Source: Candidatus Omnitrophota bacterium
GTDB lineage: Bacteria > Omnitrophota > Gorgyraeia > 1-14-0-20-64-10
Length of the DNA stretch: 64,000 nt
Direction of reading: 5' to 3'
NCBI GenBank assembly: GCA_023248155.1
Contig: JAHFFE010000007.1
Coordinates: 4,401 to 68,400 of the forward strand
Positions 35,831-53,412 of the stretch are shown here, piece by piece. Within the stretch, counting starts at the first letter, position 1. Every line of letters begins with the position of its first letter. Under the pieces are notes generated by a model. That model was not told where the DNA came from and made no database searches. It saw only the letters and a program-made list of their open reading frames with translations. The translations under genes were made by a program, and so were the position numbers.

Positions 35831-37744
35831 ATGAATATCCCAAGCGATAAATCGCCCCGTTTCGTTTTCCGGTTTTTTTCAGCTTTGTTTATGGTGGCCC
35901 TGGTTTTCGTAATGCCTGCAACCCTCTTTGCCGATCCAACGCCGGTTCCCGAATCTTCCGCTGAAGCGGCCAAACCGCCTACGGCCCAGAATAACAAGGA
36001 TTATGTGCCGGGCGAGGTATTGGTCCGTATCAAGGATGGTGTTCCGGTCTCGCAGGTGGCGGCACTCGCCAAATCGATGGGCGCGAACCTCGACCGCCGC
36101 GTTACTTCGTGGGGACTCTATCTTTTTAAGTTCAGTGATTCCGCTCCAATTGATGAAGTTGTCAATCGTCTTCGCCAGCACCCGGCGGTTCAATATGCCG
36201 AGCCCAACGGAAAAATGCAGTTGTTCGGCGTCGGCGACGGCAGCGGATCCGGTTCGGAAAATTCTTCGGCAGGAACCCCGATTCTGGTGGCCGTGATTGA
36301 TACCGGCATTGATTTGAATCATACGGCGTTCGCCGGACATCTGTATCAGAACCTGCGCGAGATCGCCGGCGACGGCATTGATAACGACGGCAACGGTTAT
36401 GTCGACGACGTCAATGGATTTGATTTTTACAGCCGTTCCTCCTCCCCGATGGGAACGGCTGGTTCCGGCGCGCACGGTACGCAGGTGACCGGGCGCATTT
36501 TGCAGGGTGCCGTCGACGCGCCGGTTTCGGTGATGGCGCTGAGGGTCGGCCCCGGGCCGTCGCTTTCGTTGGCGGCCATCGTTGAAGCGATCGATTACGC
36601 CGTCAACAACGGCGCGAAAGTTATCAATATGAGCCTCGGCGCAACGATGCCGTATCAGGCGCTTTCCGAAGCGGTTCAGCGCGCGATTGACCGCGGCGTG
36701 ATTGTCGTGGCGGCGGCTGGCAACAGCGGCGCCGTGACGCCGAACTATCCGGCCGCTTTGCCGGGCGTGATATCGGTGGCCGCGTCCGACGCCAATGGCG
36801 CAAAAACCTGGTGGTCAAACTACGGCAGCACTGTCGATTTCACGGCGCCCGGTGATCAGGTAGTCACTACGACTTTCGGCGGAGGAAACGCCGCCGTCAG
36901 CGGAACTTCATTCTCGGCGCCGTTTGTGGCCGGCATGGTCGCGCGTATTCTTTCGGCCATGCCGAACCTCGGCGTAAATGATGTGATTAATAATTTGAAG
37001 GCATTTGCCAAAGATATTTACGCGGTGAACCACAGTTTTTACCAGGGCAAGCTGGGGCAGGGATTCCTCGACGAGCAGGTGGCTTCGCGCATCGCGCAGG
37101 CATTTCCGTTAGCGCCGCGGTCTCCGGCCGATCAGCCGCAGAATCAGAAGGATATGCTCGATGCCCAATTGGCCGCCGCGCAGAGGGAAGTCGCCCGGCT
37201 TGAATCGGAACTTTCCGCCGCAGACCGGAACCTGACCGCCGCGCATGAAGCTACTGTCGCTGCGAATGCACAAGTGGATCAGGCGGTGCAGAATGCCAAC
37301 CAGGCCTGGAAAGATTTCACGAATGCCTGGAGCGCCTGGTTCCGCGCCAGTTACTCGATCCGTGTTTCTCCGCAGGAAAAAGAATCACTGCGCCAGAAAA
37401 TGCAGCAGGCCTGGGAAAAAATGAACAAGGCCAACGCCGAAAAGCAGGATGCCCAGGCCCGCCAGCGCGTGGCGCAGTCGGATGAGAACCGGATCCGGAC
37501 CCAGCGTGAATCAATCGCCACCCAGCTGCGCGGCGCGCGCCAGCAGGTGGACGACATCAACCGGCGCCTTTCGGCGCTGATCAACCCGGCGCAGGGGGGA
37601 CAGGCCGAAACGAACTCGTTGTTGGGCCGTCTGCACGCGATTTCTCAATCGCTTAGTTTCGGGCCGCGCGGTCTGGGAATGCAGGAAGCGTCCGAATTGT
37701 CGCTGCCGGGTTCCGACAACGATCAGAATACAAGCGCTAAATAA
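35831..37744 (+). CDS. Secreted S8 subtilisin-like serine protease with a C-terminal coiled-coil region
   Basis: A GAGGAGA SD precedes the ATG. There is a signal peptide. Catalytic triad motifs: VAVIDTGID (Asp), HGTQVTG (His), GTSFSAPFVAG (Ser). The C-terminal ~180 aa are Q/A/R/E-rich heptad-like sequence. Confidence 0.85.
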   Translation: MNIPSDKSPRFVFRFFSALFMVALVFVMPATLFADPTPVPESSAEAAKPPTAQNNKDYVPGEVLVRIKDGVPVSQVAALAKSMGANLDRRVTSWGLYLFKFSDSAPIDEVVNRLRQHPAVQYAEPNGKMQLFGVGDGSGSGSENSSAGTPILVAVIDTGIDLNHTAFAGHLYQNLREIAGDGIDNDGNGYVDDVNGFDFYSRSSSPMGTAGSGAHGTQVTGRILQGAVDAPVSVMALRVGPGPSLSLAAIVEAIDYAVNNGAKVINMSLGATMPYQALSEAVQRAIDRGVIVVAAAGNSGAVTPNYPAALPGVISVAASDANGAKTWWSNYGSTVDFTAPGDQVVTTTFGGGNAAVSGTSFSAPFVAGMVARILSAMPNLGVNDVINNLKAFAKDIYAVNHSFYQGKLGQGFLDEQVASRIAQAFPLAPRSPADQPQNQKDMLDAQLAAAQREVARLESELSAADRNLTAAHEATVAANAQVDQAVQNANQAWKDFTNAWSAWFRASYSIRVSPQEKESLRQKMQQAWEKMNKANAEKQDAQARQRVAQSDENRIRTQRESIATQLRGARQQVDDINRRLSALINPAQGGQAETNSLLGRLHAISQSLSFGPRGLGMQEASELSLPGSDNDQNTSAK

Positions 37745-37796
37745 CGGCCCTCGCCGCCGTCTTGTCATCGCTCCACGCCTCTGGTAAACTGATTCC

Positions 37797-38252
37797 GTGA
37801 AGAAACAATTCATTTTTTGGATCATTTTTTTGTCTTTTTTCGCTTCCGCGCATGCGGCAGAACTTGATCTGTTTGCCCAGGTGGACCGGCAGCAGCTGCG
37901 CCCAGGAGAACGGCTGACCTACGCCGTTACACTGGTGGGAGCGATGGTTCACGGCACGCCCCGTTTGGAACTCAACGAATTCAAGGGATTTTCGGTTATT
38001 TCTACCGGTCAGTCCCAGCAGGTTCGGATGCACAACGGGCAGACCCAGCAGGCGGTTACATTGACCTACACGCTTTCTCCATCGACGCCGGGCACTTATC
38101 TTTTAGGTCCGGCGCGCGTCGAATACGAAGGCAAGGTCTATGCCACTGAAGCCATTGAAATTCAGGTTGTTGAAGACGGTGAACAAAAAGTTCCGCCGGC
38201 TCGGGGCAACCCGCGTAAAGCTCCGGCGTTAAGAGGAGGAGTCGTTTTGTGA
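37797..38252 (+). CDS. Small secreted protein of unknown function
   Basis: A GTG start is followed by a signal peptide MKKQFIFWIIFLSFFASAHA. No family was recognised. Confidence 0.5.
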   Translation: MKKQFIFWIIFLSFFASAHAAELDLFAQVDRQQLRPGERLTYAVTLVGAMVHGTPRLELNEFKGFSVISTGQSQQVRMHNGQTQQAVTLTYTLSPSTPGTYLLGPARVEYEGKVYATEAIEIQVVEDGEQKVPPARGNPRKAPALRGGVVL

Positions 38253-38992
38253 ACAGGCATTTTTTTCCCGCGCTGGCGCTGATTCTTTCAATCGGGCTTG
38301 TCGGCGGCTGCGCCGGCGGCCAGAAAAAGCGGCAGATCGAAACACTTGAAACGCGCACAACAGAACTGCAACAGCAGTTGTCCGATGCCGAAAATTCGCG
38401 CCGCTCTCTGCAGCGCGCGCTGGATCAGGCCCGCGCCGACTTAAGCGAGGCGCAGCGCGACCATGCCGATCAGATTCGCCGGCTTTTGCAGGATAAAGAA
38501 AAGGAAACCGACAGCCTCGTAGAAGCGCAGCGCCGCCTGGCGATCAGCCTGAAAAAAGAGCTCGACGATTCCAAAGCCAAGCTGGAAATGACCGAGCGCG
38601 GGCTCGTCTTGACGCTGCTCGACGAAATTTTCTTTGATTCCGGCAAGGCCGTCATTAAAGAGGAAAGTTTCCCGACGCTCGATAAGGTGGCCAAGGTTCT
38701 CAAGGAGACCGTTCCGAACAGTTCGGTGGCGGTGGAAGGGCACACCGACGACCAGCCGATCAAATATTCGGGCTGGCGGACCAACTGGGAACTTTCCAGC
38801 GGCCGGGCGTTGGCCGTGGTTCATTACTTTATCGATCAGCAAAAGGTAGCCTCAGAACGGATGCAGGCGGTAGCCCGCGGGGAATTTCACCCAGTGGCTT
38901 CTAATACGACCGCAGAAGGCCGCCGGCAGAATCGGCGCGTGGAAGTAGTGATCCTGCCCAGCCATCTCAAGAAAGACAAGCCGGGGCGCTGA
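38249..38992 (+). CDS. OmpA/MotB-family lipoprotein with a coiled-coil linker
   Basis: Lipobox LVGGC. The coiled-coil region (ELQQQLSDAENSRRSLQRALDQAR...) is followed by an OmpA-like C-terminal domain (FFDSGKAVIKEES...VEGHTDDQP...GRRQNRRVEVV). Confidence 0.75.
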   Translation: MNRHFFPALALILSIGLVGGCAGGQKKRQIETLETRTTELQQQLSDAENSRRSLQRALDQARADLSEAQRDHADQIRRLLQDKEKETDSLVEAQRRLAISLKKELDDSKAKLEMTERGLVLTLLDEIFFDSGKAVIKEESFPTLDKVAKVLKETVPNSSVAVEGHTDDQPIKYSGWRTNWELSSGRALAVVHYFIDQQKVASERMQAVARGEFHPVASNTTAEGRRQNRRVEVVILPSHLKKDKPGR

Positions 38993-38999
38993 TAAAATC

Positions 39000-40238
39000 A
39001 TGTCATGGATGAAAGGTCTCCGCTGCCGCGAATGCGGGCGCGATTTTCCGGCTAAAGCGCTGTTTGTCTGCGAATACTGTTTCGGGTCGCTCGAGGTTGA
39101 TTACGACTACGAAGCGATGCACGGCAAACTGACGCGCGCCGCGATTGAAAAGCGGCCGGCCAATATCTGGCGCTACCGCGAACTGCTTCCGATTGACGGC
39201 GATCCAACGGTCGGTTTCCATACCGGCATGACGCCGCTGTTCCGCGCCGAACGATTGGGCAAGGCGCTGGGCGTCAAAGAACTGTACATCAAAGACGATT
39301 CCGTCTGCCATCCGACACTGTCATTTAAAGACCGCGTCGTTTCGGTTGCGCTTTCCCGCGCCAAAGAACTTGGTTTTGATACGGCCGCTTGCGCGTCCAC
39401 CGGAAACCTGGGCAACTCCGTCGCATCGCTTTCAGCCAAGGCCGGCATGAAGCGCGTGATTTTTATTCCGGCCGATCTGGAGATGGGCAAGGTGGTCGGT
39501 TCCTTGATCTACGCGCCGAACCTGGTGGCCGTTGAAGGGAACTACGACGAAGTCAACCGCCTCTGCGCCGAGATCGCGGGCCGCTACCACTGGGCGTTCG
39601 TGAATATCAACATTCGTCCCTATTACGCTGAAGGATCCAAAACCTACGGATTTGAAATCGCCGAACAGATGGGGTGGACAACGCCCAAGCATATCGTGGT
39701 TCCGGCGGCCAGCGGTTCGTTGCTGGTGAAAATCTGGAAGGGGTTCAAGGAACTCCACAAGCTGGGTCTGATTTCAAAACCGGAATCCCGTCTGTACGCG
39801 GCGCAGCCCGACGGCTGTTCGCCGATCGTGACGGCCGTCAACAGCGGCGTGGATGTGATCAAGCCGGTCAAGCCGAAGACGATCGCAAAATCGCTGGCGA
39901 TCGGCAACCCGGCCGACGGTTATTACGCGACTGACGCGATCCGCGAAACGCAGGGCGGCGCGGCCTCGGTCACCGACGCCGAAATCGTCGATGCGATGAA
40001 GTTATTGGCCCAGACCGAAGGAATCTTTACCGAGACGGCCGGCGGCGTAACCGTGGCGGCCGCGAAGAAGCTGATCGAAGAAAAGAAAATTCCGCGTGAT
40101 GAATCGATTGTGATCTGTATCACCGGGCAGGGTTTGAAAACGCAGGAAGCGGTAATGGATCATATCGGCAAGCCGATCAAAATCCGGCCGACGCTGGAAT
40201 CGTTTGAGACGGAAGTCGCTTCTAAAACCAACTTGTAA
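39000..40238 (+). CDS. Threonine-synthase-like PLP-dependent enzyme with an N-terminal Zn-ribbon (ThrC homolog of the sulfide-dependent homocysteine pathway type)
   Basis: An N-terminal CRECG...CEYC ribbon, the PLP-lysine motif SFKDR and a fold-type II PLP core (ACASTGNLGNS). Confidence 0.8.
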   Translation: MSWMKGLRCRECGRDFPAKALFVCEYCFGSLEVDYDYEAMHGKLTRAAIEKRPANIWRYRELLPIDGDPTVGFHTGMTPLFRAERLGKALGVKELYIKDDSVCHPTLSFKDRVVSVALSRAKELGFDTAACASTGNLGNSVASLSAKAGMKRVIFIPADLEMGKVVGSLIYAPNLVAVEGNYDEVNRLCAEIAGRYHWAFVNINIRPYYAEGSKTYGFEIAEQMGWTTPKHIVVPAASGSLLVKIWKGFKELHKLGLISKPESRLYAAQPDGCSPIVTAVNSGVDVIKPVKPKTIAKSLAIGNPADGYYATDAIRETQGGAASVTDAEIVDAMKLLAQTEGIFTETAGGVTVAAAKKLIEEKKIPRDESIVICITGQGLKTQEAVMDHIGKPIKIRPTLESFETEVASKTNL

Positions 40239-40248
40239 GGAGGAGAGC

Positions 40249-40524
40249 ATGGCGATTGTTGTTCGAATTCCGACCCCGCTCCAGAAATTGACGGGCGATA
40301 AAGCTGAAGTGACCGCCGAGGGCGGAAGTGTGCAGGATTTGTTGACCGATTTGGACCGGCAGTTTCCGGGACTGAAAGACCGGCTTTGCGATCCAAGCGG
40401 CAAACTGCGCCGGTTTGTGAATTTGTATGTCAACGAAGAAGACATTCGCTTTTTAAAGCAGGAATCGACGGCGCTGAAAGACGGCGACGAAGTGTCGATC
40501 ATTCCCGCGATAGCCGGAGGATAA
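40249..40524 (+). CDS. MoaD/ThiS-family sulfur carrier protein ending in Gly-Gly
   Basis: A 91-aa ORF with a GGAGGAG SD. The C-terminus is ...SIIPAIAGG-stop. Its GG codons also form the SD of the next gene. Confidence 0.75.
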   Translation: MAIVVRIPTPLQKLTGDKAEVTAEGGSVQDLLTDLDRQFPGLKDRLCDPSGKLRRFVNLYVNEEDIRFLKQESTALKDGDEVSIIPAIAGG

Positions 40525-40530
40525 CCAACC

Positions 40531-40773
40531 ATGCCCAAGCGAATGGTTCAGCTGATTTTTCCGCAAAAGCTGATTAAGAAACCGGTCATTTACACGATGG
40601 CCGTCAAATGCAAGGTGGTTCCGAATGTCCGCCGCGCCAAAGTGACCGAGACCGTCGGCAATATGACGCTGGAACTGGAAGGAACCAAAGAGAACCTCGA
40701 AAAAGGAATTAAATTCCTGATCCGGCAGGGCGTCAAGGTGGAACCTGTCATGGGCGATGTCCTCGAGTCTTAA
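40531..40773 (+). CDS. NIL-domain protein (stand-alone MetN C-terminal-like domain)
   Basis: An 80-aa ORF whose pattern VIYTMAVKCKVVPNVRRAKVTETVGNMTLELEG...FLIRQGVKVEPV resembles NIL domains associated with sulfur/methionine systems. Confidence 0.5.
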   Translation: MPKRMVQLIFPQKLIKKPVIYTMAVKCKVVPNVRRAKVTETVGNMTLELEGTKENLEKGIKFLIRQGVKVEPVMGDVLES

Positions 40774-40776
40774 CTC

Positions 40777-40897
40777 GTCCGCTGAAAAAGCTCCGTCTGC
40801 TTTGTTGCATGCGGCGCTCTCTCGTGCGGCGTATAAGCCACATACGCCTCCTCGGTCGCTTGCATGCGCCGTGCATCCGAGAGCTTTTTGAGCGGAC
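40777..40897 (+). repeat. 120-nt element bounded by 17-bp near-perfect inverted repeats
   Basis: GTCCGCTGAAAAAGCTC (40777..40793) pairs with GAGCTTTTTGAGCGGAC (40881..40897), 16 of 17 complementary. Additional internal complementarity exists (GCATGCGGCG / CGCCGTGCAT). Confidence 0.5.
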
Positions 40898-40936
40898 TTT
40901 CAAAACAGGTTTTCTCATAACCCGGTTTCATTCCTG

Positions 40937-41524
40937 ATGAATGAGTTTCTTCCCGATGACCGCGCGCTGATCGAGGGCGTTGCGGCGCGGGATCCCGAAG
41001 CGTTCCGGTCCGTCATGGAACAGTATTCGGGGCCGGTGTTCAATTTGTCCTACCGTTTTTTGTCCAATCGCGCCGACGCCGAAGAAGTCGCGCAGGAAGT
41101 TTTCTTAAAGCTCTATCTTCATCCTCCTGTTCTGCAGCCCTCCGTCAAATTATTTACCTGGCTTTACCGCGTGACCGTCAATGCGTCGCTGGACGCCTTG
41201 CGCCGCCGCAAGCGTGCCGGGATTGCTTTCTCTACCGATCAGACCTATGAAACCGCCGAAGGCGAAACCGTTTCTCCGGGCACGCTGCTGGCCGATCCTA
41301 TCGGACCGCGCACGCGGATCGAAAACCGCGACCGTCTGCGCTGCGCGCGTGAAGCGATCGCGCAGCTGCCTGATGCATTAAAGGCACCGCTTATTTTGTC
41401 GGTTCTTGAGGAACTACCGCATTCCGAGATCGCCGTTATTTTAAAAATCAGCCCCAAGGCGGTCGAGCGCCGGATCCATCGTGCCCGTCAGCTTTTGAGC
41501 GATCAGTTGCGGTCATTTTTATAA
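40937..41524 (+). CDS. ECF-type RNA polymerase sigma-70 factor
   Basis: Region 2 is AEEVAQEVFLKLYLH..WLYRVTVNASLD. Region 4 HTH is LPHSEIAVILKISPKAVERRIHRARQLL. Confidence 0.85.
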   Translation: MNEFLPDDRALIEGVAARDPEAFRSVMEQYSGPVFNLSYRFLSNRADAEEVAQEVFLKLYLHPPVLQPSVKLFTWLYRVTVNASLDALRRRKRAGIAFSTDQTYETAEGETVSPGTLLADPIGPRTRIENRDRLRCAREAIAQLPDALKAPLILSVLEELPHSEIAVILKISPKAVERRIHRARQLLSDQLRSFL

Positions 41525-41560
41525 GGTAGGGGGGATTCGCCGATTCCCGGCGTTTAATAG

Positions 41561-41917
41561 ATGAAGGGAATAAATGGCATGAAAAACGAAAAATCAGATC
41601 AACCGTTGGATCAATTACTGCGGGATGCCTGCGCGCCTGTACCGGTCTCGGCCGATTTCCGGCGTCAGTTGTGGGGCCGTTTGATAAAACCGGCCGAAGT
41701 TGTTTCCATTTCTGTCTGGTCGGGTGCTTTGGCCGCCGCTGTTTTTCTGGGTGTTTTTATTGGAACCGTGCAAACCGCTTTGCCGGTCGCGCGCGCAGAT
41801 GCCGCGGTTCAATCTGTTTTAACCCGCCATGAACGGTGGGATCTGTTCGCCGATGCGCCGCACGACACGCTGGCTGGATCGGTGATCCGCTTAAGTGCCA
41901 AAGGAGAAAAACAATGA
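41561..41917 (+). CDS. Putative single-pass anti-sigma factor
   Basis: It lies directly downstream of the ECF sigma gene and has one TM helix (ISVWSGALAAAVFLGVFIGTV). The start may be the ATG at 41579. It overlaps the next gene by ATGA. Confidence 0.5.
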   Translation: MKGINGMKNEKSDQPLDQLLRDACAPVPVSADFRRQLWGRLIKPAEVVSISVWSGALAAAVFLGVFIGTVQTALPVARADAAVQSVLTRHERWDLFADAPHDTLAGSVIRLSAKGEKQ

Positions 41918-42369
41918 AACGGTTCTGGATCGCCGCGGTGTTGCTGGCATTGTCCGGTTTGGCTGCGTACGGATTGGCGCGCGGCTGCTGCCGTTTTTGG
42001 GCAAAAAAAGAAGGGGTCAACGAACAGATTCTTGACCGCCTGGCGCTGACGAGTGAACAGCGATTGGCCGTGGCGCCGATTGAGGCCGATTATTTGAAAA
42101 AGAAAAACGCCACCTGCGAATTGCTTTGCGCCAAGCGCGCCCAGTTGATTCAAACGATGAAGCAGCCCGAATGGGACCGCGATGTTTTATTTCAGTTGGT
42201 TCAGGAGATCGGGCAGGAGCAAACATTGTTTGAGCAGGAAACGATCGATTATTTAACTGCGCTCAATCAGTATCTGGATGAACCGCAAAAGAAGCGGCTC
42301 AGGGAGCTGGTTACAGCGGAGCTGCGTACCGCCTGCCAGGCCACGGCTTGTGGGAGGAATTCAAAATGA
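41914..42369 (+). CDS. Periplasmic stress/metal sensor of the Spy/CpxP/CnrX (LTxxQ) family
   Basis: An AAGGAGA SD, a signal peptide MKRFWIAAVLLALSGLAAYG, then an LTSEQRLAV motif and helical repeats. Its position after sigma/anti-sigma mirrors cnrYXH-type modules. Confidence 0.5.
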   Translation: MKRFWIAAVLLALSGLAAYGLARGCCRFWAKKEGVNEQILDRLALTSEQRLAVAPIEADYLKKKNATCELLCAKRAQLIQTMKQPEWDRDVLFQLVQEIGQEQTLFEQETIDYLTALNQYLDEPQKKRLRELVTAELRTACQATACGRNSK

Positions 42370-42803
42370 AGAAAAACCTTTTAGTGATGCTGGCACTTTC
42401 CGTTTCTCTGCTGTTCTCGGGCGTCGCATCGGCAGAGCATGATGCGAGCCATATGAAAATGGATGCCATCCAGAAACCGGTCGTTGCCAAAACACCGTCC
42501 CCGATTGAGGTGAAGCCGGGCCAGTTGATCCTTGAGGTCGACGGGCTTGTCTGCGCGGTCTGCGGTTACGGCATTGAGCGCAATGTCGCAAAACTTGACT
42601 TTATCGACCGGAAGAAATTCAGCCATGGCGTATTGACCGACGTCTACAATCAGCGGTTGGTTCTGGCGCTTGTGCCGGGAAAATCGGTGGATCTAAAAGC
42701 GCTTTCGGAAGCAATCAAACATGCCGGCTATCCGCTCAAGGCCGTCTACCTATTCTCGGCTGAGGGGCATCCAACACGGATTGAGGCGGCGGATATTCGA
42801 TGA
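42366..42803 (+). CDS. Periplasmic heavy-metal-binding (HMA-like, CxxC) protein
   Basis: A GGGAGG SD, a signal peptide, and LEVDGLVCAVCGYGIERNVAKL, which resembles an HMA GMxCxxC-type site. Confidence 0.5.
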   Translation: MKKNLLVMLALSVSLLFSGVASAEHDASHMKMDAIQKPVVAKTPSPIEVKPGQLILEVDGLVCAVCGYGIERNVAKLDFIDRKKFSHGVLTDVYNQRLVLALVPGKSVDLKALSEAIKHAGYPLKAVYLFSAEGHPTRIEAADIR

Positions 42804-43669
42804 AACGGAAGGCGGCTTTGCTGCTGCTTGTTCTCTTGCTGGGCGCCGTTTCAACGGCCTGGGCACGCCAGCCGGTTATGGATATGATGCCTCGGTGGAA
42901 GCATGGGTATGGCTTCCAGTTTGCCCATTCCTCCCGTACGTCTTCCACGCTGAAAGAAGGCGATTCTGAAATTAACAATCCTTTTGGCCGGAAACGCCGC
43001 GTGGAAATGGAATGGCTGCAGGGGGTTTATTCGTTCAGTCAGGAGCGCCGCGTTTCTTTCAAGATCCCTTGGGTTAACCAAAGCCGGACCACGCTAAGGC
43101 ATGGTGCCCCAGTAAAAGAAACCGGAACCGGTTGGGGGGACCTGATTCTCGGTTTTCTCTTTAAAAAATATTGGGACAGAGAAAATACCACCGCCAATGT
43201 GAGCGTGGTGCCGTCTATCCGTATTCCGACCGGCAGCACCGACGATGCTTATCCCGTGGGTGACGGCAGCACCGATTTTGGTTTAAGCTTCTCCTACAAC
43301 CGCGATACTCCGCGCACCTATCAGTTTTACGAAACATTTTATTGGCTCAACGGGCATGGCCGGCAGGGGATCTCCCAGGGCGATGAAATCGGCCTCAATG
43401 CCGATCTGGGATTGAACGTCTACCGGAACCAGGAAAAGAATTGGGGCATTATGCTGGCCTGGAGCAATACGCTGCGGCACGAAATGCAGGGAGTGGACCA
43501 GGAGGGAGAAACCGGCGGAACGCTCTTGTCGATGGGGCCGATGGTGATGTTCTCCTGGAGAAATTTTATCAGTCATGTGGGATATAAAATACCGGTCTAC
43601 GAACGGCTTCAGGATCAGCAGGTTTCTTATGGTCCGGAACTGGAGATTGAAGCAGGGATGGCCTTCTGA
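42800..43669 (+). CDS. Outer membrane beta-barrel protein, possibly of the small OM transport family often found in metal operons
   Basis: A signal peptide MKRKAALLLLVLLLGAVSTAWA, alternating beta-strand-like pattern, and a C-terminal ...GMAF with terminal Phe. Confidence 0.45.
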   Translation: MKRKAALLLLVLLLGAVSTAWARQPVMDMMPRWKHGYGFQFAHSSRTSSTLKEGDSEINNPFGRKRRVEMEWLQGVYSFSQERRVSFKIPWVNQSRTTLRHGAPVKETGTGWGDLILGFLFKKYWDRENTTANVSVVPSIRIPTGSTDDAYPVGDGSTDFGLSFSYNRDTPRTYQFYETFYWLNGHGRQGISQGDEIGLNADLGLNVYRNQEKNWGIMLAWSNTLRHEMQGVDQEGETGGTLLSMGPMVMFSWRNFISHVGYKIPVYERLQDQQVSYGPELEIEAGMAF

Positions 43670-45096
43670 TGATAACGATCCGCCGATTAGTTCCCGGAAT
43701 AGCGATCCTCTTTTTATTAGCGGGATGCGCAACGGTGTCCGCGAAAACGGATTTTTCCGGAGTGCAGAAAACGGTCGCTTCACGCACGGAAGCGCGCGTG
43801 CATTGGAATCAGGGCGGGCCCGAGGATGCGGCGGTGGCCCAGGCCATTGAATCAACATTGGGAAAAGAACTTACCGTAGAGGCCGCGGTGCAGCTGGCGC
43901 TCTTGAACAACCGGACTCTTCAGGCTACCTTCGAAGAATTAGGGATTGCCCAGGCCGATTTGGTGCAGGCCGGTCTGCTTAAGAATCCTGTCTTTGCAGG
44001 TCATGTCCGGTTTTCCGATCAGTCCGGTCAAGGGACCAACACAGAATTTTCGGTTTCACAGGATTTTATGGAACTTTTCGCGCGGTCCCTGCGGAAAAAA
44101 GTTGCCGCCGCGCAGCTTGAGAGTGTCCAGTTTCGGGTCAGCGATGCCGTGTTGAAATTGTCTGCCGAAGTTCGCTTGGCCTATTACGCTCTGCAAGGAG
44201 CGGAACATTCTCAAAAATCGTTTGAGACCATTGTGCAAGCGGCCCAGGCGGCCGTGGATCTGGCCGAGCGTCAGCACACTGCGGGCAATAGTAACGATTT
44301 GGAATTTGCCGGCGAACAGGCCGCTTTTCAGCAAGCCAATCTGGATCTGATACGAAGCCAGGCCGAATTGCTTTCTGCCCGCGAGAGATTGAATCGTCTG
44401 ATCGGTCTTACGGAAAATCCGTCATGGACCATTTCGGAAATAGTGCCCGCAATGCCTTCCAGGGAACCTTCCGGTGAAACGCTGGAACAACAGGCGCTTT
44501 CTCAGCGGCTGGATTTATTGGCTGCCCGGAACGATGTTCACGCATCGGAGCAAGTAGTGGATCTGGCCCGTCGGGGAGCGTGGCCGGCGGTTAACATCGG
44601 GGTGGATACCGAACGGGATCCGGATGGCACCCGCGTTACCGGCCCATCCTGGGAAGCGGAACTTCCGGTTTTTGATCAGAAGCAAACACCTGTTGCCAGG
44701 GCGCAGGCCCAGCTCCGCCAGAACCAGAACCGGGTTGCCGCTCTGGAAACCCAGATTCGCTCCGAAGTCCGCGCCTCCCTGAACCATGTTCAGGTATCCC
44801 GTCAGCTGATTGACCGGTATCGGGATGAAATGATTCCGCTTCGGGAGAAAATCGTCGCGGAAACTCAGAAACATTACAACTTTATGCTCAAAGGCGCTTT
44901 TCAACTTTTGCAGGCCAAACGCGATGAATTGAACGCCTACCGCGAATATATGAACGCTTTGCAGGATTACTGGCAGGCCCGAACCGATTTGGAGCGGGCC
45001 GTGGGCGGGCGCCTGCCGGTTTCCGAATCGAGCCCCATTCCGATGGCTCACCCGGCGGAACCAAAACAGGAAGCCGCGCACCACCATCATCATTAG
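43669..45096 (+). CDS. TolC/CusC-like outer membrane efflux factor (OMF) with a C-terminal His5 tail
   Basis: Lipoprotein-like N-terminus (LLAGC). The OMF signature LTVEAAVQLALLNNRTLQATFEELGIAQADLVQAGLLKNP and two helical repeats. It ends AAHHHHH-stop. Confidence 0.8.
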   Translation: MITIRRLVPGIAILFLLAGCATVSAKTDFSGVQKTVASRTEARVHWNQGGPEDAAVAQAIESTLGKELTVEAAVQLALLNNRTLQATFEELGIAQADLVQAGLLKNPVFAGHVRFSDQSGQGTNTEFSVSQDFMELFARSLRKKVAAAQLESVQFRVSDAVLKLSAEVRLAYYALQGAEHSQKSFETIVQAAQAAVDLAERQHTAGNSNDLEFAGEQAAFQQANLDLIRSQAELLSARERLNRLIGLTENPSWTISEIVPAMPSREPSGETLEQQALSQRLDLLAARNDVHASEQVVDLARRGAWPAVNIGVDTERDPDGTRVTGPSWEAELPVFDQKQTPVARAQAQLRQNQNRVAALETQIRSEVRASLNHVQVSRQLIDRYRDEMIPLREKIVAETQKHYNFMLKGAFQLLQAKRDELNAYREYMNALQDYWQARTDLERAVGGRLPVSESSPIPMAHPAEPKQEAAHHHHH

Positions 45097-45109
45097 AAGG
45101 GAATTTACG

Positions 45110-46507
45110 ATGGCGAAACTGATACTAAAACTTTGGGCAGTGACATTTTTGATTGCCATGGTAACTGCGCCTGCTATGGCAGATCCGACTGATATTCAGC
45201 CAGAGAAGGCCCAGAATTCATCAGCGTATACTCCCGTGGTCACCCCTAACGGAAGCACCCTTTGTTGGAAGATGGTGGATGGCGTTAAGGAGTTCCACCT
45301 GACTGTTGAGGAGGTTGAATGGGAGGTGGCTCCCGGCATGAAAATTAAGGCCTGGGGCTACAATGGCCAGACTCCCGGACCTACCCTCGAGGCGGTGGAA
45401 GGTGATCGGGTCCGCATTCTTGTGACGAACAAACTTCCTGAACCGACCGCGGTTCATTGGCACGGAGTCCTTCTTCCCAGCGGAATGGACGGCGTGCAGG
45501 GGCTTACTCAAAAACCGATTATGCCGGGTGAAACTTTCGCCTATGAATTCACGCTCAAGCAGCACGGCACCCAGATGTACCATTCCCACGGCGATGAAAT
45601 GGTCCAGATGGGGCTGGGGGCGATGGGGTTCTTTATCATTCATCCCAAAACTGCTCCCACTAAAATTGACCGGGACTACGCGATCTTTTTGAACGAATGG
45701 TTCGTGAAGCCGGGAACCTCCCGGCCCGACCCGAATGTCATGACCGACTTCAACCTCTTCACCTTCAACAGCCGCGCATTCCCCGGAACCGCTCCGCTTT
45801 TGGCAAGGCCGGGCGAGCGGGTTCGTATTCGTGTCGGGAATGTGGGCCAGGAGTTCCATGCGATTCACCTGCACGGGCATAATTTTAAAATGGTTGGCAC
45901 CGAGGGCGGGGATATTCCGGAATCGGCGCAGTATCCGGAAACAACCGTGGCGATCGGGCCGGGCCAGACGCGCGATTTCGAATTTACCGCCGTTCCCGGA
46001 GACTGGGCGTTTCACTGCCATCTGCGGCATCACCCGATGAACGCCATGGCGCATGATATTCCCAATGTGATCGGTGTCAGCCAAGAAGGCGTGGAGGAGA
46101 AAATCCAGGCGCTTCTGCCGGACTACATGGCGATGGGTGAGAGCGGAATGGGCGAACATTCCGAGCATGCCAAGCATATGCAAGGGCCGGCCAATACGCT
46201 TCCGATGATGGGCGGCGAGGGGCCTTTTGGAAATGTCGGTATGGGCGGCATGTTTACGGTGCTTAAAGTTCACGAGGATGTTCCCGATTTTAAAGACGCG
46301 GATGATTACACGAAACAAGTGAAACTGCCCGGCGATTTCGGATGGTACAAAAATCCCGCGGGAACCGTGGCCGAACTTGCTCCCGGATATGAAAACCAGT
46401 TAACAAAGGAGGGAACGATCTATACCTGCCCGATGCACCCGGAAGTCAGACAGGATAAACCCGGTGCTTGCCCCAAATGCGGCATGACTTTAGAAAAGGA
46501 GAAATAA
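45110..46507 (+). CDS. Multicopper oxidase (CopA/CueO-like) with a Met/His-rich segment and a C-terminal CPMHPE...CPKCGM metal-binding module
   Basis: Copper-site motifs HWHG, HSHGDEM and HCHLRHHPMNAMAH. Met-rich stretch MGESGMGEHSEHAKHMQGPANTLPMMGG. C-terminal [22 protein letters not shown]. Confidence 0.85.
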   Translation: MAKLILKLWAVTFLIAMVTAPAMADPTDIQPEKAQNSSAYTPVVTPNGSTLCWKMVDGVKEFHLTVEEVEWEVAPGMKIKAWGYNGQTPGPTLEAVEGDRVRILVTNKLPEPTAVHWHGVLLPSGMDGVQGLTQKPIMPGETFAYEFTLKQHGTQMYHSHGDEMVQMGLGAMGFFIIHPKTAPTKIDRDYAIFLNEWFVKPGTSRPDPNVMTDFNLFTFNSRAFPGTAPLLARPGERVRIRVGNVGQEFHAIHLHGHNFKMVGTEGGDIPESAQYPETTVAIGPGQTRDFEFTAVPGDWAFHCHLRHHPMNAMAHDIPNVIGVSQEGVEEKIQALLPDYMAMGESGMGEHSEHAKHMQGPANTLPMMGGEGPFGNVGMGGMFTVLKVHEDVPDFKDADDYTKQVKLPGDFGWYKNPAGTVAELAPGYENQLTKEGTIYTCPMHPEVRQDKPGACPKCGMTLEKEK

Positions 46508-46508
46508 A

Positions 46509-46907
46509 ATGCGCAACATAGTAATGGCCGGAATGGCGGCGGCGTTTTTGATGATGTTGGGTTTCTCGAATTTACCGGCGGCTGTGGCGCACGATGCCAA
46601 TATGCCGGGGATGGAGAACGGAAGGGATGTGGCTATTAAAGGGGAACTGGTGGATTCTCTCTGCTATGTGGCGATGGCCGGAAAAGGTTCGGGCCATAAA
46701 CAGTGCGCGATGGATTGCGCGAAAGCCGGAATTCCCGTCAGTATCGTTGAAGAGGGCACCGGTAAGTTGTATACGGTTCTTCCTAAAGAGGACAAGACAG
46801 GGTATCCTGCCAGCGTTATCAGCAAAATGGGCCAACAAGTAACGTTGAAGGGTGATCTTTACGAGACCGGCGGCAATAAGTATGTGACCGTCGAATCGGT
46901 GGAATAA
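46509..46907 (+). CDS. Periplasmic Cys/His/Met-containing protein, putative metal-binding
   Basis: A signal peptide, the motif CYVAMAGKGSGHKQCAMDCAKAG, and location inside the copper operon. Confidence 0.4.
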   Translation: MRNIVMAGMAAAFLMMLGFSNLPAAVAHDANMPGMENGRDVAIKGELVDSLCYVAMAGKGSGHKQCAMDCAKAGIPVSIVEEGTGKLYTVLPKEDKTGYPASVISKMGQQVTLKGDLYETGGNKYVTVESVE

Positions 46908-46912
46908 AGCCG

Positions 46913-47386
46913 ATGCTGTCCGGAGCGCGGCACCTGCAGAATATTCATCCGCTCATCGTTCACTTTCCGATAGCGTTTTTGATCGCTGCCGCGCTCTTTT
47001 ATTTTATGGCGTGGGTTTTTAATAAGGATGATTTTGCCAGAACAGGATTCCGGGTGCTTTTGCTCGGGGCCCTGTCTTTGGCGGTCGCCGTCTGGACAGG
47101 GCTTCGTGCCGAAGACGGAGTCATGGTGGCACTGGATGTGAGGCAGAAGCTTCTTTTGCCCCACGAGCAATTCATGATTGCCACGGCGGTTTTGTGCGCT
47201 ATCGTTACGCTGTGGGCGATTGTCGGAAGGCCTTTTCCGAAAAAAGGAAGAGTCCTGTTTTTAGCGCTGCTTCTCGCGATGGTCATTACGATGACGATCG
47301 GCGCTGATTTTGGCGGGCAGCTTGTTTACGATTACAATGCCGGCGGTAGCTTGCCGCAGCCGATTCACTTTAAAATAGTTCAATGA
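46913..47386 (+). CDS. Small integral membrane protein (DUF2231-like, [10 protein letters not shown] motif)
   Basis: About four predicted TM helices and a conserved [13 protein letters not shown]-terminal helix. It lies between the periplasmic protein and the ATPase. Confidence 0.5.
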
Positions 47387-49494
47387 AATACACCTGTCCG
47401 ATGCATCCGGAAATTATTTTAGATCAACCCGGTTCTTGCCCGAAATGCGGGATGTTTTTGGAGCTTAAAGACGCCGCGGGTTCTCCCGAAGACCTCGAAT
47501 ACAGACAGATGTCGCGCCGGTTCTGGGCGAGCCTCATACTGTCCGTTCCGATTATTTTACTCGCGATCCCAGAATTGATTCCGGGCAATCCTTTGGAAAA
47601 AATTGTTTCCATGCGCGTTATCAACTGGATTGAATTTGCTTTCGCTACGCCGGTGGTGCTCTGGGGCGGGGGGTGGTTTTTTGAGCGCGGGGTTTTATCC
47701 GTTGCGCGGCGAAGCCTTAACATGTTTACGCTGATTGCCTTGGGCGTAGGAGCGGCTTATGGGTACAGCGTGATCGCGCTGGTTTTCCCTTCCGTATTTC
47801 CGAGCGCTTTCCAAAGTCACGGCGGTGAAGTCCCGGTTTATTTCGAAGCCGCGGCAGCGATCACGGTGCTGGTTATTTTGGGTCAGCTCCTGGAGCTCAG
47901 GGCGCGCCGCCAGACCAGTGACGCCATCAAGGCGCTTCTTAATCTTGCGCCAAAGACGGCAAGGGTGATTCGGGATAACAACAACGAAGAAGATATCCCA
48001 TTGGAACAGGTAGCGGTGGGAGATAGGCTTCGCGTGCGTCCCGGCGAAAGTATTCCCACGGACGGCGTGGTTCTGGAAGGATCCAGCTCTGTGGATGAGT
48101 CGATGGTGACCGGGGAACCCATTCCCGTGGAAAAAGTCGCGGGGTCTAAAGTCGTGGGAGGGACGGTCAGCGGCACCGGCAGTTTTATTATGCGCGCCGA
48201 GCGCGTGGGAGCCGACACGCTCCTTTCTAAAATCGTTCATATGGTGAGCGAGGCGCAAAGAAGCCGCGCCCCCATTCAGCGCCTTGTCGACAGTGTCTCA
48301 GCCTATTTTGTGCCGGCGGTTATTCTTGCGGCGATTTCGACCTCTGTTATTTGGGGATTTTTCGGACCTGAACCGCGAATGGCTTATGCGATCGTGAATG
48401 CCGTCGCCGTGTTGATCATCGCTTGCCCGTGCGCTTTGGGACTGGCCACGCCCATGTCCATTATGGTCGGTGTCGGCCGCGGCGCGACGATGGGCATTCT
48501 GATCAAGAACGCCGAAGCCCTTGAGACTTTCCGGAAAGTCGACACGCTTATTTTCGACAAAACAGGCACGCTCACGGAAGGCAAGCCCAGACTTGTTTCC
48601 ATTCTGCCCGAAGCAGGAGTAAGCGAAGAAGAATTTCTGCATCTCGCGGCCAGCCTTGAACGGGGGAGTGAACACCCGCTGGCGCAGGCGATCGTGAAGG
48701 GAGCCGAATCCAAAAATGTCCGGTTCGTCGAAACCAAAGCTTTTAAATCAGTGACGGGTAAAGGCGTGGCGGGAACCGTCGACGGAAAAAATATCGTTCT
48801 TGGAAATCAGGAATGGATCGAAGAGCTGGGCATTTCATCGGCGCGGTTGATACCCAAGGCCGACGAATTGCGGAAGGACGGACAGACCGTCATGTTTTTA
48901 GCGGATAAGGGCCGTCTGCTTGGAATTCTCGGCGTTTCAGATTCCATCAAGGCTTCTACTCCCGAAGCGATCCGGATGCTGCATAACGAGGGACTGCGTT
49001 TAATCATGGTCACCGGAGACAATCAAGTGACTGCCGATGCGGTAGCGCGCAAGCTCGGCATTGATGAGGTGCGGGCCGGAATATTGCCCGAGAAAAAAGG
49101 AGAAATTATCAGGGAACTCCAGGCCAAAGGGCATTTGGTTGCCATGGCTGGTGACGGTGTCAATGATGCCCCCGCGCTGGCGCAGGCAAATGTGGGCATC
49201 GCGATGGGCAGCGGAACGGATGTCGCCATCGAAAGCGCGGGCGTGACGCTGGTGAAAGGAGATCTGCGGGGCATCGCCAAGGCAAGGAAATTAAGCCGTG
49301 CGACCATGCGCAATATCCGCGAAAACCTCTTTTTCGCTTTCGTTTATAATATTCTCGGAGTTCCCGTCTCGGCCGGGATTCTCTATCCATTTTTCGGCAT
49401 CCTGCTTTCTCCGGTCATCGCGAGCACGGCGATGAGTTTTAGTTCGGTATCGGTCATCGTGAACGCTTTACGATTGCGCAGGGTTTCGCTTTAG
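47383..49494 (+). CDS. copA: Copper-translocating P1B-type ATPase with an N-terminal CPMHPE...CPKCGM metal-binding module
   Basis: [24 protein letters not shown], the CPC motif ([11 protein letters not shown]), [15 protein letters not shown], and 8 TM segments. Confidence 0.9.
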
Positions 49495-49497
49495 CCT

Positions 49498-50364
49498 ATG
49501 TCCGAACATTCACACGATCCGTTGACAACAAGGGCCGCCTCGCCGCTGGCGGGCGCGTTGATCATTACGGCCACGGTCATGGTGTTGGAAATCATTGCCG
49601 GCCTTCTTTCGAACAGCCTGGCTCTTTTAGCGGATGCCGGGCATATGGCCACCGATGCTGCGGCGCTCGGAATGAGTTTGTTCGCCTGCTGGATTGCCCG
49701 TCAGCCGGCAACCCGGACCAAAACCTATGGGTTCTACCGGACCGAGATTTTAGCGGCGCTCTTGAATGGGCTGACCCTCTGGCTGGTTGTGGCATGGATC
49801 ATCTATCACGCTGTTCAGCGGTTCGTTCATCCTCCCGTTGTTCGCGCCCCGATGATGCTGGTAACGGCTGTCATTGGTCTGGCGGCGAACCTGGGGTGCG
49901 CCTGGCTGTTGAGGCCCTCTCAGGCGCAAAGTCTCAATATGCGCAGCGCTTATCTGCATGTCTTATCGGATGCGCTGGGTTCTGTCAGCGTCATCGCGGC
50001 CGCGGTGGTTATCCAAATGACTGGCTGGTCCCTGGCAGATCCCTTGGCGAGTCTTCTCGTTTGCGGCCTTATTCTCTGGAGTTCATGGAAGTTGATTTCT
50101 CAGTCGGTCAATATTTTACTGGAAGGGACGCCGCCCCATATCGATGCCATGGAAGTGACGCGGGCCATGCAAGCCGTTGCAGGGGTGCGATCGGTTCACG
50201 ATGTTCATATCTGGACGATTACTTCGGGGATGGAGGCGATGAGCGCCCATGTGGTGGTTGATAATTCGAACGACAGCCGGGGATTGTTGGATCGCCTGAA
50301 TACGCTTCTGTGTGACCGGTTCAAGATCCATCACACGACCATTCAGTTGGAAGAAGCTCTGTGA
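49498..50364 (+). CDS. Cation diffusion facilitator (CzcD-type) metal efflux transporter
   Basis: His-rich N-terminus (SEHSHD), the CDF signature LLSNSLALLADAGHMATD, six TM segments and a C-terminal cytoplasmic domain. Confidence 0.85.
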   Translation: MSEHSHDPLTTRAASPLAGALIITATVMVLEIIAGLLSNSLALLADAGHMATDAAALGMSLFACWIARQPATRTKTYGFYRTEILAALLNGLTLWLVVAWIIYHAVQRFVHPPVVRAPMMLVTAVIGLAANLGCAWLLRPSQAQSLNMRSAYLHVLSDALGSVSVIAAAVVIQMTGWSLADPLASLLVCGLILWSSWKLISQSVNILLEGTPPHIDAMEVTRAMQAVAGVRSVHDVHIWTITSGMEAMSAHVVVDNSNDSRGLLDRLNTLLCDRFKIHHTTIQLEEAL

Positions 50365-51904: not shown

Positions 51905-53023
51905 ATGTCGTCCTCGCATTCCGTTCTGCCTTCCGAATCGTTGAAGCGGACCGTGCTGTATTCGCGGCACGTTCAGCTGGGCGCCCGCATCGGTCCGTTT
52001 GCCGGCTGGGAGCTTCCGCTTTACTATAGTTCCATTTTGCAGGAACATCAGGCTGTTCGCACCGCGGTCGGATTGTTTGACGTTTCCCATCTGGGCCATC
52101 TGGAACTGCACGGGCCCGGAACAGCCTCGCAGCTGCAGCTGTTGTTCACGCAGGACTTGGCTGGTATGCAAATCGGCAGCGCCGTTTACAGTCCGATGCT
52201 TAATCCTCAGGGCTGGATCATCGATGAGATGATCATCTACCGCCTCGGGCAGGAACGGTTCCGCCTGGTGGTGAATGCGGCCAACGGCGGCAAGGTGATC
52301 CACTGGCTGAAAGCGCACCTTTCAAAAAATGTCCGTATTGACGATCTGCGCGAAAAATATGGAACGCTGGCCGTTCAGGGGCCGCGCGCCGTCGAACTGT
52401 TCAGCAAGATTTCATCGATGGATTTTGCCGGCGTGCCGCGCTACCGGATTGTTTCGGCAATCATGGCGGAGCGTTCCGTTTGGGTGGCGCGCACCGGATA
52501 CACCGGAGAAGACGGCGGGGAACTGTTTGCCTCATCAGCCGATCTGCCTTATTTGTGGGACGCGCTGCTGGAAGCCGGCAAGCCGATGGGCATTCAACCG
52601 GTTGGTCTGGGCGCGCGCGACACTTTGCGGCTCGAGGCCGGGCTTCCGCTGGGCGGCATTGATCTCGATGAACAGACCACACCGTTGGAAGCCGGACTGG
52701 ACTGGACTATTTTCTGGCGCAAAGGGCCGTTCATGGGCCGTGAAGCGCTGGAAAAACAGCAGCGCAACGGGTTGCATCGCCGGCTGGCCGGTTTTCAGAT
52801 GGACGGCGCCGGGATCCCGCGTTTGGGGTACCCGATTTATTCGGGAGAAGACAAAGTCGGCCTGGTGACCAGCGGAACGATGCTGGCCGACGGGCGGGGA
52901 ATCGGAATGGGGTATCTGCCGCCGTTATTGGGGAAACCGGGTACACCGGTTAAGATTGGAATTCATCAGCGCGCCGTTGATGCGCATGTCGTACAACTGC
53001 CATTTTACCGGAGAAAAAAATAA
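51905..53023 (+). CDS. gcvT: Glycine cleavage system T protein (aminomethyltransferase)
   Basis: LYSRHVQLGARIGPFAGWELPLYY...VGLFDVSHLG is the canonical GcvT N-terminus. It is followed by gcvH and gcvP. Confidence 0.9.
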   Translation: MSSSHSVLPSESLKRTVLYSRHVQLGARIGPFAGWELPLYYSSILQEHQAVRTAVGLFDVSHLGHLELHGPGTASQLQLLFTQDLAGMQIGSAVYSPMLNPQGWIIDEMIIYRLGQERFRLVVNAANGGKVIHWLKAHLSKNVRIDDLREKYGTLAVQGPRAVELFSKISSMDFAGVPRYRIVSAIMAERSVWVARTGYTGEDGGELFASSADLPYLWDALLEAGKPMGIQPVGLGARDTLRLEAGLPLGGIDLDEQTTPLEAGLDWTIFWRKGPFMGREALEKQQRNGLHRRLAGFQMDGAGIPRLGYPIYSGEDKVGLVTSGTMLADGRGIGMGYLPPLLGKPGTPVKIGIHQRAVDAHVVQLPFYRRKK

Positions 53024-53025
53024 CC

Positions 53026-53412
53026 ATGGATTTGAACGGATTGAAATATACGAAAACCCACGAATGGCTGCGCGTCGAGGGTCAGCTGGGCATCGTCGGT
53101 ATTACACAGCATGCGCAGGAAGAAATTTCCGACGTGGTTTTTGTCGAGCTTCCGAAGGTCGGCAAAATGGTCAGCCAGGGCGAAGAAACCGCCGTGGTCG
53201 AATCGGTCAAGGCCGCATTCTCGATCTACGCGCCGATCTCCGGAACGATCACCACGGTCAATGAATCGCTTTCCAAAGATCCCGGGCTGATCAACCGTTC
53301 TCCGCTCGAACAGGGTTGGATTTATAAAATAGAATTGCGCGATCCTGCCGAAGCCAAGGCATTAATGGATGCGCCCGCTTACGAAGCCTGGGCCAAGGGG
53401 AATAAACACTAA
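53026..53412 (+). CDS. gcvH: Glycine cleavage system H protein (lipoyl carrier)
   Basis: YTKTHEWLRVEG...ESVKA carries the lipoyl-lysine motif. Confidence 0.9.
   Translation: MDLNGLKYTKTHEWLRVEGQLGIVGITQHAQEEISDVVFVELPKVGKMVSQGEETAVVESVKAAFSIYAPISGTITTVNESLSKDPGLINRSPLEQGWIYKIELRDPAEAKALMDAPAYEAWAKGNKH

Follow-up and report, generated by a model that had tools for sequence, protein, structure and literature searches.

We analysed a 64,000-nucleotide (nt) stretch of contig JAHFFE010000007.1 from a Candidatus Omnitrophota bacterium (the window, within which all positions are counted), and examined three consecutive forward-strand genes at 39000-40773 that probably form a homocysteine-synthesis operon of the methionine branch. 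A preliminary description of this segment had reported a homologue of threonine synthase (ThrC), a sulfur carrier and a stand-alone NIL domain. Re-reading the sequence bore out all three open reading frames (ORFs) at these positions, and an independent gene call of the identical ENA contig gave the same three genes with the Pfam labels PALP, ThiS and NIL. A 96%-identical Logan contig (locus L002 of our set) likewise carries PALP, ThiS and NIL genes.

The first gene (39000..40238) encodes a 412-residue pyridoxal-phosphate (PLP) enzyme homologous to ThrC (PALP, E=2.4e-69), which we term MetM-like after the Streptomyces albulus enzyme discussed below. An alignment of homologues places an N-terminal zinc-ribbon motif (C9-x2-C12 ... 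C24-x2-C27) at 39024..39080, and the codon at 39327..39329 specifies Lys110 of an SFKDR motif, which, going by the ThrC family, we take to be the lysine that forms the PLP Schiff base. The second gene (40249..40524), 10 nt further on, encodes a 91-residue MetO/CysO-like carrier of the ThiS family (ThiS, E=2.6e-19), which ends in PAIAGG directly before the stop codon and thus has the free C-terminal Gly-Gly previously ascribed to it. Its start is ATG 40249, behind a Shine-Dalgarno-like AAGGAGGAG (40237..40245, found by reading the sequence) that takes in the final AA of the enzyme's TAA stop; the mechanical ORF list starts it at TTG 40204. After a further 6 nt, the third gene (40531..40773) encodes an 80-residue protein, a putative methionine-sensing subunit, in which Pfam NIL (E=1.6e-15; 57 bits, cutoff 24) is the only domain, in line with its earlier designation as stand-alone. 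The carrier and NIL genes share a reading frame, with only TAA CCA ACC between them.

The carrier's final codons, GGA GGA (Gly90-Gly91, 40516..40521, forward strand), had been proposed to double as the Shine-Dalgarno sequence of the NIL gene. Among junctions at which the carrier ends at Gly-Gly, GGAGG lies on these codons in 5/7 tightly spaced ThiS-NIL junctions versus 2/14 loosely spaced ones (Fisher p=0.017), a comparison that overstates independence, since Nitrospira relatives make up four of the seven tight junctions. In the window the motif ends 9-10 nt upstream of the NIL ATG, a long spacing for a Shine-Dalgarno sequence. A double role of the Gly-Gly codons is thus plausible given the enrichment, with the spacing and the relatedness of the loci standing against it.

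The enzyme is a paralogue distinct from the canonical threonine synthase. Its identity is 33-38% to canonical ThrC and 70-96% to homologues that are all labelled Omnitrophota; identity is at least 50% inside the long, MetM-like clade and at most 41% between this clade and canonical ThrC. Against solved threonine synthases the window enzyme scores 169-204 bits versus 441-518 bits for a second ThrC (355-375 residues) encoded directly after the NIL gene at 11 Nitrospirota loci, which sets the enzyme apart from bona fide threonine synthases, as the preliminary description had supposed. S108, K110, D111 and R112 are invariant in the MetM-like clade and in canonical ThrC, and at 30 positions each of the two has its own fixed residue, as in KDRV versus KDRG and STGNL versus STGNT. 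The predicted N-terminal zinc ribbon was also recovered, with C9, C12, C24 and C27 invariant in 18 homologues and CxxC...CxxC kept in 71/84 clade members. The ribbon is degenerate in Verrucomicrobiota: the N-termini of the verrucomicrobial-type MetM-like proteins (CRECG...VCEFDF; L024, L039, L042, L043, L049, L051, L052, L056, L060, L061, L070 and L082) have lost the fourth cysteine, and the zinc site is therefore not universally required.

That the enzyme is a genuine threonine synthase or synthase/deaminase, and that its adjacency to ThiS and NIL reflects shared regulation of the aspartate pathway rather than chemistry, is in our view very unlikely. Canonical ThrC is encoded alongside at the 11 loci above, and the 30 differently fixed positions separate the clades, with the PLP lysine motif and GN loop as features that both have in common. 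The enzyme does score above the equivalog cutoff of NCBIfam TIGR00260 (thrC) with 296 bits (cutoff 167), the canonical ThrC neighbour in relatives scoring 330, and public annotations of its homologues uniformly read 'threonine synthase'. NF006050 gives 300.2 bits (cutoff 303), in a match that spans residues 2-387 and includes the N-terminus. GapMind 2026 states that MetM is often misannotated in this way (bioRxiv 10.1101/2024.10.14.618325). ThrC of the cyanobacterium Microcystis, 51.6% identical to MetM, is reported to have acted in vitro as threonine synthase and deaminase, with no clear MetM behaviour (PMC12172450); B. subtilis ThrC is 33% identical to MetM according to the citing literature. 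A tblastn search of plasmids returned mostly haloarchaeal and proteobacterial thrC at ~33-36% identity, matches that were uninformative, along with the informative Nonomuraea sequence described below. Cysteate synthase was rejected as an identity of the enzyme, which reaches 79 bits against a TIGR03844 cutoff of 325.

The Nitrospirota loci with two ThrC homologues (Thermodesulfovibrionia/Nitrospirota; L017, L018, L019, L022, L025-L029, L033 and L037, for example L017 7995-11040) have the order MetM-like, ThiS, NIL, canonical ThrC. Both consumers of phosphohomoserine and the putative sensor are thereby held in one operon, which suggests branch-point control. In a metagenome-assembled genome (MAG) deposited as Aquifex aeolicus, a MetM-like protein shares 60% identity with the window enzyme (L075, 2317-3546), and no carrier gene was present in the 630 nt downstream, a locus too short to show one. 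The solved 352-residue threonine synthase 2zsj is from Aquifex, and the L075 enzyme would then be a second paralogue. For Aquifex, a 2018 listing gave none of the known homocysteine routes (PMC5764234).

The gene neighbourhood was surveyed in 80 species-level loci encoding relatives 59-84% identical to the window enzyme, from Omnitrophota, Nitrospirota, Verrucomicrobiota, Elusimicrobiota, Nitrospinota, Rokubacteria/Methylomirabilota, Zetaproteobacteria, Dehalococcoidia, Thermodesulfobacteriota, Binatia, Poribacteria, Aquifex and others, with MAG taxon labels used as deposited. Neighbours were counted at the 70 loci whose downstream flank reaches 1.5 kb or more, using mechanically called ORFs and hidden Markov models (HMMs) bootstrapped from the same loci with jackhmmer; the counts are lower bounds, with divergent ThiS proteins missed (such as an 80-residue copy in L004). 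ThiS lies within 3 kb of the enzyme gene in 62/70 loci, NIL within 3 kb in 56/70, spread over 10 phyla or more, and both in 53/70, and this three-gene arrangement is not chance. Nearby genes further include ThiF (36/70), CysM-like (35/70), JAB (22/70), TusA (9/70) and sulfite reductase (9/70) homologues.

Directly 5' of the operon and on its strand, 24/80 loci carry an S-adenosylmethionine (SAM) riboswitch of class SAM-I (RF00162, 67-96 bits), which is also present at loci where the enzyme stands alone. The riboswitches were sought by a regular expression for the core motif, and Rfam confirmed 24/24 of the operon-upstream matches. The SAM riboswitch marks the function of the family without being an obligatory feature of it, and the family belongs to the methionine regulon. 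These riboswitches at orthologous operons support the earlier proposal of a thiocarboxylate-dependent (sulfur-carrier-dependent) homocysteine/methionine unit. They further argue against a threonine synthase, as control is by SAM and not by threonine, and so does the adjacency to ThiS, which has no place in threonine synthesis.

Several of the loci (L003, L004, L009, L034 and others) are exactly ThiS/MoaD-JAB-E1 neighbourhoods of types 4c-4e in the 2006 survey of Iyer, Burroughs and Aravind (PMC1779556), with sulfite reductase, 3'-phosphoadenosine-5'-phosphosulfate (PAPS) reductase, SirA/TusA, JAB and E1 genes, and the sulfate-assimilation clusters at L003 and L004 are complete. The enzymes it names for such neighbourhoods are cysteine synthase and O-acetylhomoserine sulfhydrylase; it mentions no threonine-synthase homologue, and NIL occurs in it 0 times (PMC1779556).

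The closest solved relatives of the window carrier are M. tuberculosis CysO (3dwg_C, 7.6e-23), in complex with CysM, and then 4n6e_B. The M. tuberculosis CysM/CysO/Mec/MoeZ and Wolinella HcyS/MetY/HcyD/HcyF systems are thiocarboxylate pathways, in which, as proposed here, a ThiS-family thiocarboxylate is the sulfide donor to a PLP enzyme. Such a 'protein thiocarboxylate pathway' is treated in PMC5764234. The likeness to CysM/CysO extends to the JAMM and E1 partners at loci related to the window operon; in contrast to both systems, the enzyme here is of ThrC type, its presumed substrate is O-phosphohomoserine, and an NIL subunit accompanies it. The kinship with CysO, and the sulfate-assimilation genes that often share these clusters, would also suit a module making cysteine (an O-phosphoserine sulfhydrylase like CysM/CysO) or another thiol, and we rate this as highly improbable. 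The CysM-like genes at half of the censused loci are separate ones (~300-380 residues, sometimes with a ThiS of their own), the control element is a SAM riboswitch, and the enzyme sits in the ThrC branch, which handles the C4 compound phosphohomoserine, with the TIGR03844 score given above.

Many carrier homologues have 1-4 residues past Gly-Gly (AIAGGK, AIAGGR, IAGGSC, AGGCFL and others; L013, L017-L019, L025, L027, L033, L037, L040, L046, L050, L057, L072, L074 and L080), and these would therefore need C-terminal trimming. The window carrier and the Nitrospira carriers stop exactly at Gly-Gly. A SAMP1-type protein modifier was rejected as an identity of the window carrier (54 bits, cutoff 60), leaving such a function as a possible side role only.

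The MetM/MetO route was reportedly described by Hasebe et al. in Appl Environ Microbiol in 2024 (90:e01247-24) and has been adopted in GapMind 2026. As summarised in citing papers, S. albulus MetM, which is homologous to ThrC, forms homocysteine from O-phospho-L-homoserine and the MetO thiocarboxylate, helped by MoeZ and Mec (PMC12172450; bioRxiv 10.1101/2024.10.14.618325), and metM lies behind a SAM riboswitch and is followed by the carrier gene metO (PMC12172450). This published layout of SAM riboswitch, ThrC-like gene and ThiS recurs in Nonomuraea gerenzanensis (L085, NZ_LT559118.1), whose ThrC-like protein is 52% identical to the window enzyme over residues 7-406 and keeps the zinc ribbon; the two carriers are also 52% identical. 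NZ_LT559118.1 is filed in PLSDB as a 'plasmid' of 11.85 Mb with only 10 annotated features, and is evidently the Nonomuraea chromosome.

The window operon and its relatives thus resemble MetM/MetO in having a ThrC-homologous PLP enzyme followed by a ThiS/MoaD carrier, SAM-I control in many relatives, and a ThiF/MoeZ-type E1 and a JAMM protease (Mec) as the expected helpers. They differ in the third gene, NIL, which is stand-alone or fused to the carrier and is missing at the Nonomuraea locus, and in the sequence distance between the clades (the window clade is ~50% identical to the actinomycete clade). The window copy itself differs in having no riboswitch, in having no E1 or JAMM gene within 64 kb, and in a carrier that stops at Gly-Gly and needs no trimming. 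The enzyme-carrier pair is probably a new clade-level member of the route described in 2024, and the dedicated NIL gene and the putative ThiS-NIL pro-protein appear to be new elements.

From the side of NIL, we counted neighbours in 43 metagenome contigs that extend 1.7 kb or more upstream, a set that covers relatives 60-84% identical to the window NIL. The enzyme gene lies within 3.5 kb in 38/43, and in 4 of the other 5 a ThiF gene is directly upstream; stand-alone NIL proteins of the window type are therefore dedicated to the enzyme/carrier module. At 6 loci from two lineages, ThiS and NIL are fused in proteins of 171-190 residues (L004 9248-9772; L007 6334-6906; L008 9297-9815; L014 9275-9790; L020 9288-9803; L034 3020-3535), with a JAB protease gene nearby at 6/6. 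A search with the fusion as query found ThiS and NIL fused in 119/119 sequences from the 120 best database clusters, all of which continue from AGG with Ala or Ser and have a linker of 7-27 residues. One in-frame stop codon is all that sets the window carrier/NIL pair apart from this architecture. L004 encodes a second carrier, which lies beside CysM and has no NIL, and NIL therefore goes with the methionine branch. Apart from the DUF39 work, our literature searches found no NIL domain linked to threonine synthase, ThiS or MoaD, and within the MetM/MetO pathway this gene seems to be without precedent.

The fusions raise the alternative that NIL, instead of being a sensor, partners the carrier structurally or caps it, shielding or presenting its Gly-Gly until a JAMM protease or E1 acts. 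ThiS-NIL would then be a pro-protein processed like a ubiquitin precursor, or the two proteins would be held at 1:1 by translational coupling. The uniform AGG-Ala/Ser junction and linker of the fusions, the JAB gene near each fusion locus, the single stop codon in the window and the many carriers that need trimming all fit this idea, as does the AlphaFold2 (AF2) model of a natural ThiS-NIL fusion, in which two well-folded domains are joined by a disordered linker (predicted local distance difference test, pLDDT, <50), a model compatible with an exposed cleavage site. In the same model, no confident inter-domain packing is predicted (predicted template modelling score 0.47), and thus no ThiS-NIL interface. 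Moreover, NIL follows ThiF or CysM and not ThiS at several loci, and a cap leaves unexplained both the conserved strand that corresponds to Asn295/Ala299 of MetN and the recurrence of NIL in MetN, in L-ASST (the sulfurtransferase that acts on L-aspartate semialdehyde) and in the window-type module. We therefore consider a role as cap instead of sensor unlikely; the two roles are mutually compatible.

For the NIL protein alone, AF2 predicts a ferredoxin-like beta-alpha-beta-beta-alpha-beta fold (pLDDT 80), and the top 11 Foldseek matches in the PDB are all MetN C2/NIL domains. Alignment to 3dhx places N32 (codon 40624..40626, forward strand), A36 and V38 of the window protein on N295, A299 and M301 of E. 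coli MetN, a numbering confirmed by the MetNI paper, which names exactly these three residues. L-methionine hydrogen-bonds N295 across the MetN C2 dimer, and N295A abolishes binding (PMC6233128). Among 59 members of the NIL family, N32 is kept in 92% and A36 in 98%. By analogy with MetN C2 and the NIL of L-ASST, from which a ligand and a target can be proposed, NIL would be a methionine-sensing subunit. The window NIL and MetN C2 share a Pfam family (PF09383), the fold, the Asn295 and Ala299 equivalents and a methionine-supply context, and they differ in that the window NIL is free or carrier-fused rather than mounted on an ATP-binding-cassette ATPase, and in its own family-specific invariants (Arg34, Gly43, Glu48 and Gly51).

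An exhaustive NIL search gave 444 cluster representatives, mostly stand-alone proteins of 75-110 residues with some tandem NIL-NIL or ThiS-NIL proteins; none of the best 150 of these 444 was of MetN length. Tandem NIL-NIL proteins of ~164-179 residues stand among the closest NIL relatives (P0241, P0254, P0305, P0290 and P0311). They suggest a covalently linked form of the presumed dimer and fit a dimer as the working unit. No conserved cysteine was found in the 59 family members or in the fusions, and the single cysteine of the window NIL is non-conserved, which argues against NIL as a persulfide relay.

The preliminary description had cited MA1821 as its precedent, as a ThrC-like protein with an NIL-containing partner, and this part of it failed. 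MA1821, which carries CBS domains, belongs to DUF39/COG1900 and does not resemble ThrC, MA1822 is a fusion of NIL and ferredoxin, and together they form the L-ASST, for which homoserine is no intermediate (PMC5764234; PMC12068725). As neither protein is related to ThrC, the suggested phylogeny with MA1821-type sequences would have no meaning. The precedent that fits is MetM/MetO of S. albulus, which, as summarised in citing papers, has no NIL partner; of the earlier interpretation, the carrier-dependent homocysteine module and the separation of the enzyme from ThrC were supported.

What L-ASST and the window module, as proposed here, have in common is homocysteine formation independent of MetY/MetB with an NIL domain; for that of L-ASST, methionine binding and control of the enzyme have been suggested (PMC12068725). 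L-ASST differs in its COG1900/DUF39 catalyst, in using aspartate semialdehyde and in its sulfur donor, as against a PALP fold, the presumed substrate phosphohomoserine and an NIL without ferredoxin here. We give almost no credence to the module being the DUF39/NIL-ferredoxin route from aspartate semialdehyde (MA1821/MA1822). The NIL domain is the sole shared part, and a small number of NIL homologues bear the JGI label 'L-aspartate semialdehyde sulfurtransferase ferredoxin'. The cluster has neither a DUF39/COG1900 protein nor a ferredoxin domain, its NIL has 80 residues with one non-conserved cysteine, and MA1821 is not homologous to ThrC, so that domain content already refutes this route; no DUF39 is annotated in the gene calls within +/-10 kb of the cluster.

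Combining the domain identities, the ThrC paralogy, the SAM-riboswitch control in relatives and the dedicated three-gene synteny with its fusions, we consider it probable that the three genes are a MetM/MetO-type operon of the methionine branch, encoding an O-phosphohomoserine-using homocysteine synthase, its sulfur carrier and an NIL sensor. Substrate and chemistry can be modelled on CysM/CysO/Mec, HcyS/MetY and MetM/MetO. An E1-like ThiF/MoeZ protein encoded outside the window would adenylate Gly91 of the carrier, leading to the thiocarboxylate. The enzyme would take up O-phospho-L-homoserine at Lys110 and eliminate phosphate to give a PLP-bound vinylglycine intermediate, and the carrier thiocarboxylate would then attack C-gamma, whereas in threonine synthase water attacks C-beta. 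As in the CysM/CysO/Mec analogy, the carrier-homocysteine adduct could be resolved through an S-to-N acyl shift and JAMM hydrolysis, releasing L-homocysteine for methylation to methionine. NIL, on the model of MetN C2, would dimerise and bind L-methionine (or homocysteine) across the interface through its N-I/V-R-x-A strand, and the ligand-bound form would feed back on the enzyme or the carrier.

Several findings weigh against this assignment, among them the equivalog-level TIGR00260 score, the activity of the Microcystis homologue and the lack of predicted packing in the fusion model, all described above. Orthology to S. albulus MetM was traced through a proxy, the Nonomuraea gene having been picked by its layout. 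An Rfam search of the 64-kb window gave no match, and the window operon therefore has no riboswitch. HMM searches of all window ORFs found no ThiF/MoeZ, JAB/JAMM, CysM, TusA or sulfite reductase homologue, no thrB or metE/H was found in the 64 kb, and Pfam scans of the other window genes likewise showed none of the sulfur-transfer homologues just named, and no thrB, metY or second thrC; the three genes are an isolated cassette in the source genome. Finally, the family-invariant Arg34 (NIRRA in NIL versus NIISA in MetN) could point to a different ligand.

Beyond the operon assignment itself, we tentatively advance a joint reading, which we regard as possible rather than expected. An NIL dimer loaded with methionine or homocysteine may be the missing allosteric element of the O-phosphohomoserine branch point, where it would shut the MetM-like enzyme or block charging of the carrier and so leave phosphohomoserine to canonical ThrC (encoded in the same operon in Nitrospirota). 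In a subgroup of Omnitrophota and Deltaproteobacteria, a ThiS-GG|A/S-NIL pro-protein needing JAMM cleavage might tie maturation of the carrier to the sensor, and NIL would be a universal methionine-feedback module of MetNI, the DUF39 L-ASST and MetM/MetO. The activation of plant threonine synthase by SAM is an analogue of this proposed role of NIL at the branch point.

If the assignment holds, relabelling these 'threonine synthases' as MetM-type homocysteine synthases would change predictions of methionine prototrophy in Omnitrophota, Nitrospirota (including the Nitrospira nitrifiers), Verrucomicrobiota, Zetaproteobacteria, Nitrospinota and others. The route has been characterised only in Streptomyces (2024), and its reach here would be at least 10 phyla. 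NIL as a conserved third component suggests that methionine feeds back post-translationally on a thiocarboxylate pathway, and ThiS-GG|A/S-NIL would be a natural ubiquitin-like precursor in bacteria.

On the same strand as the operon, an OmpA-family gene ends 7 nt before the enzyme start, with an S8 peptidase gene and a BatD-like gene further upstream. A promoter and terminator scan of 37600-41200 returned nothing beyond shuffled expectation. The NIL gene is followed by a 163-nt spacer (40774-40936) holding an extended hairpin of ~120 nt (predicted free energy -64 kcal/mol, z -4.6, 0/200 shuffles as stable), which occurs once in the window and is missing in the 96%-identical L002, where only 8 nt separate NIL from the extracytoplasmic-function (ECF) sigma factor gene. 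It has the appearance of a palindromic element or terminator that was inserted recently. Beyond it (40937-50364 and 51905-57377) come the ECF sigma factor gene, a metal-resistance island (outer-membrane factor, multicopper oxidase with HMBD, P-type ATPase with HMBD, CDF) and DsbD/TlpA-like genes, after which lie a complete glycine-cleavage set (gcvT-H-PA-PB) and a lipoate ligase-like gene.

Elsewhere in the window, four consecutive giant ORFs on the forward strand (5227-35734; 3051, 1957, 3917 and 1312 residues) are preceded by ROK and GH94 genes and are nearly free of Pfam matches. The few pieces recognised resemble sugar enzymes (SIS at residues 1914-1961, ROK at 987-1291 and GHMP_kinases_N at 3367-3436), and to judge from sequence these ORFs are probably multi-domain proteins with embedded kinase or isomerase modules. 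At 60246-62853, a 653-residue protein with NTP_transf_5 and sulfotransferase domains is encoded on the reverse strand, flanked by glycosyltransferase genes and adjoined by two small PqqD-like ORFs (62249-62506 and 62530-62853), which together may represent a cluster for a ribosomally synthesised and post-translationally modified peptide (RiPP) of lasso-like type.

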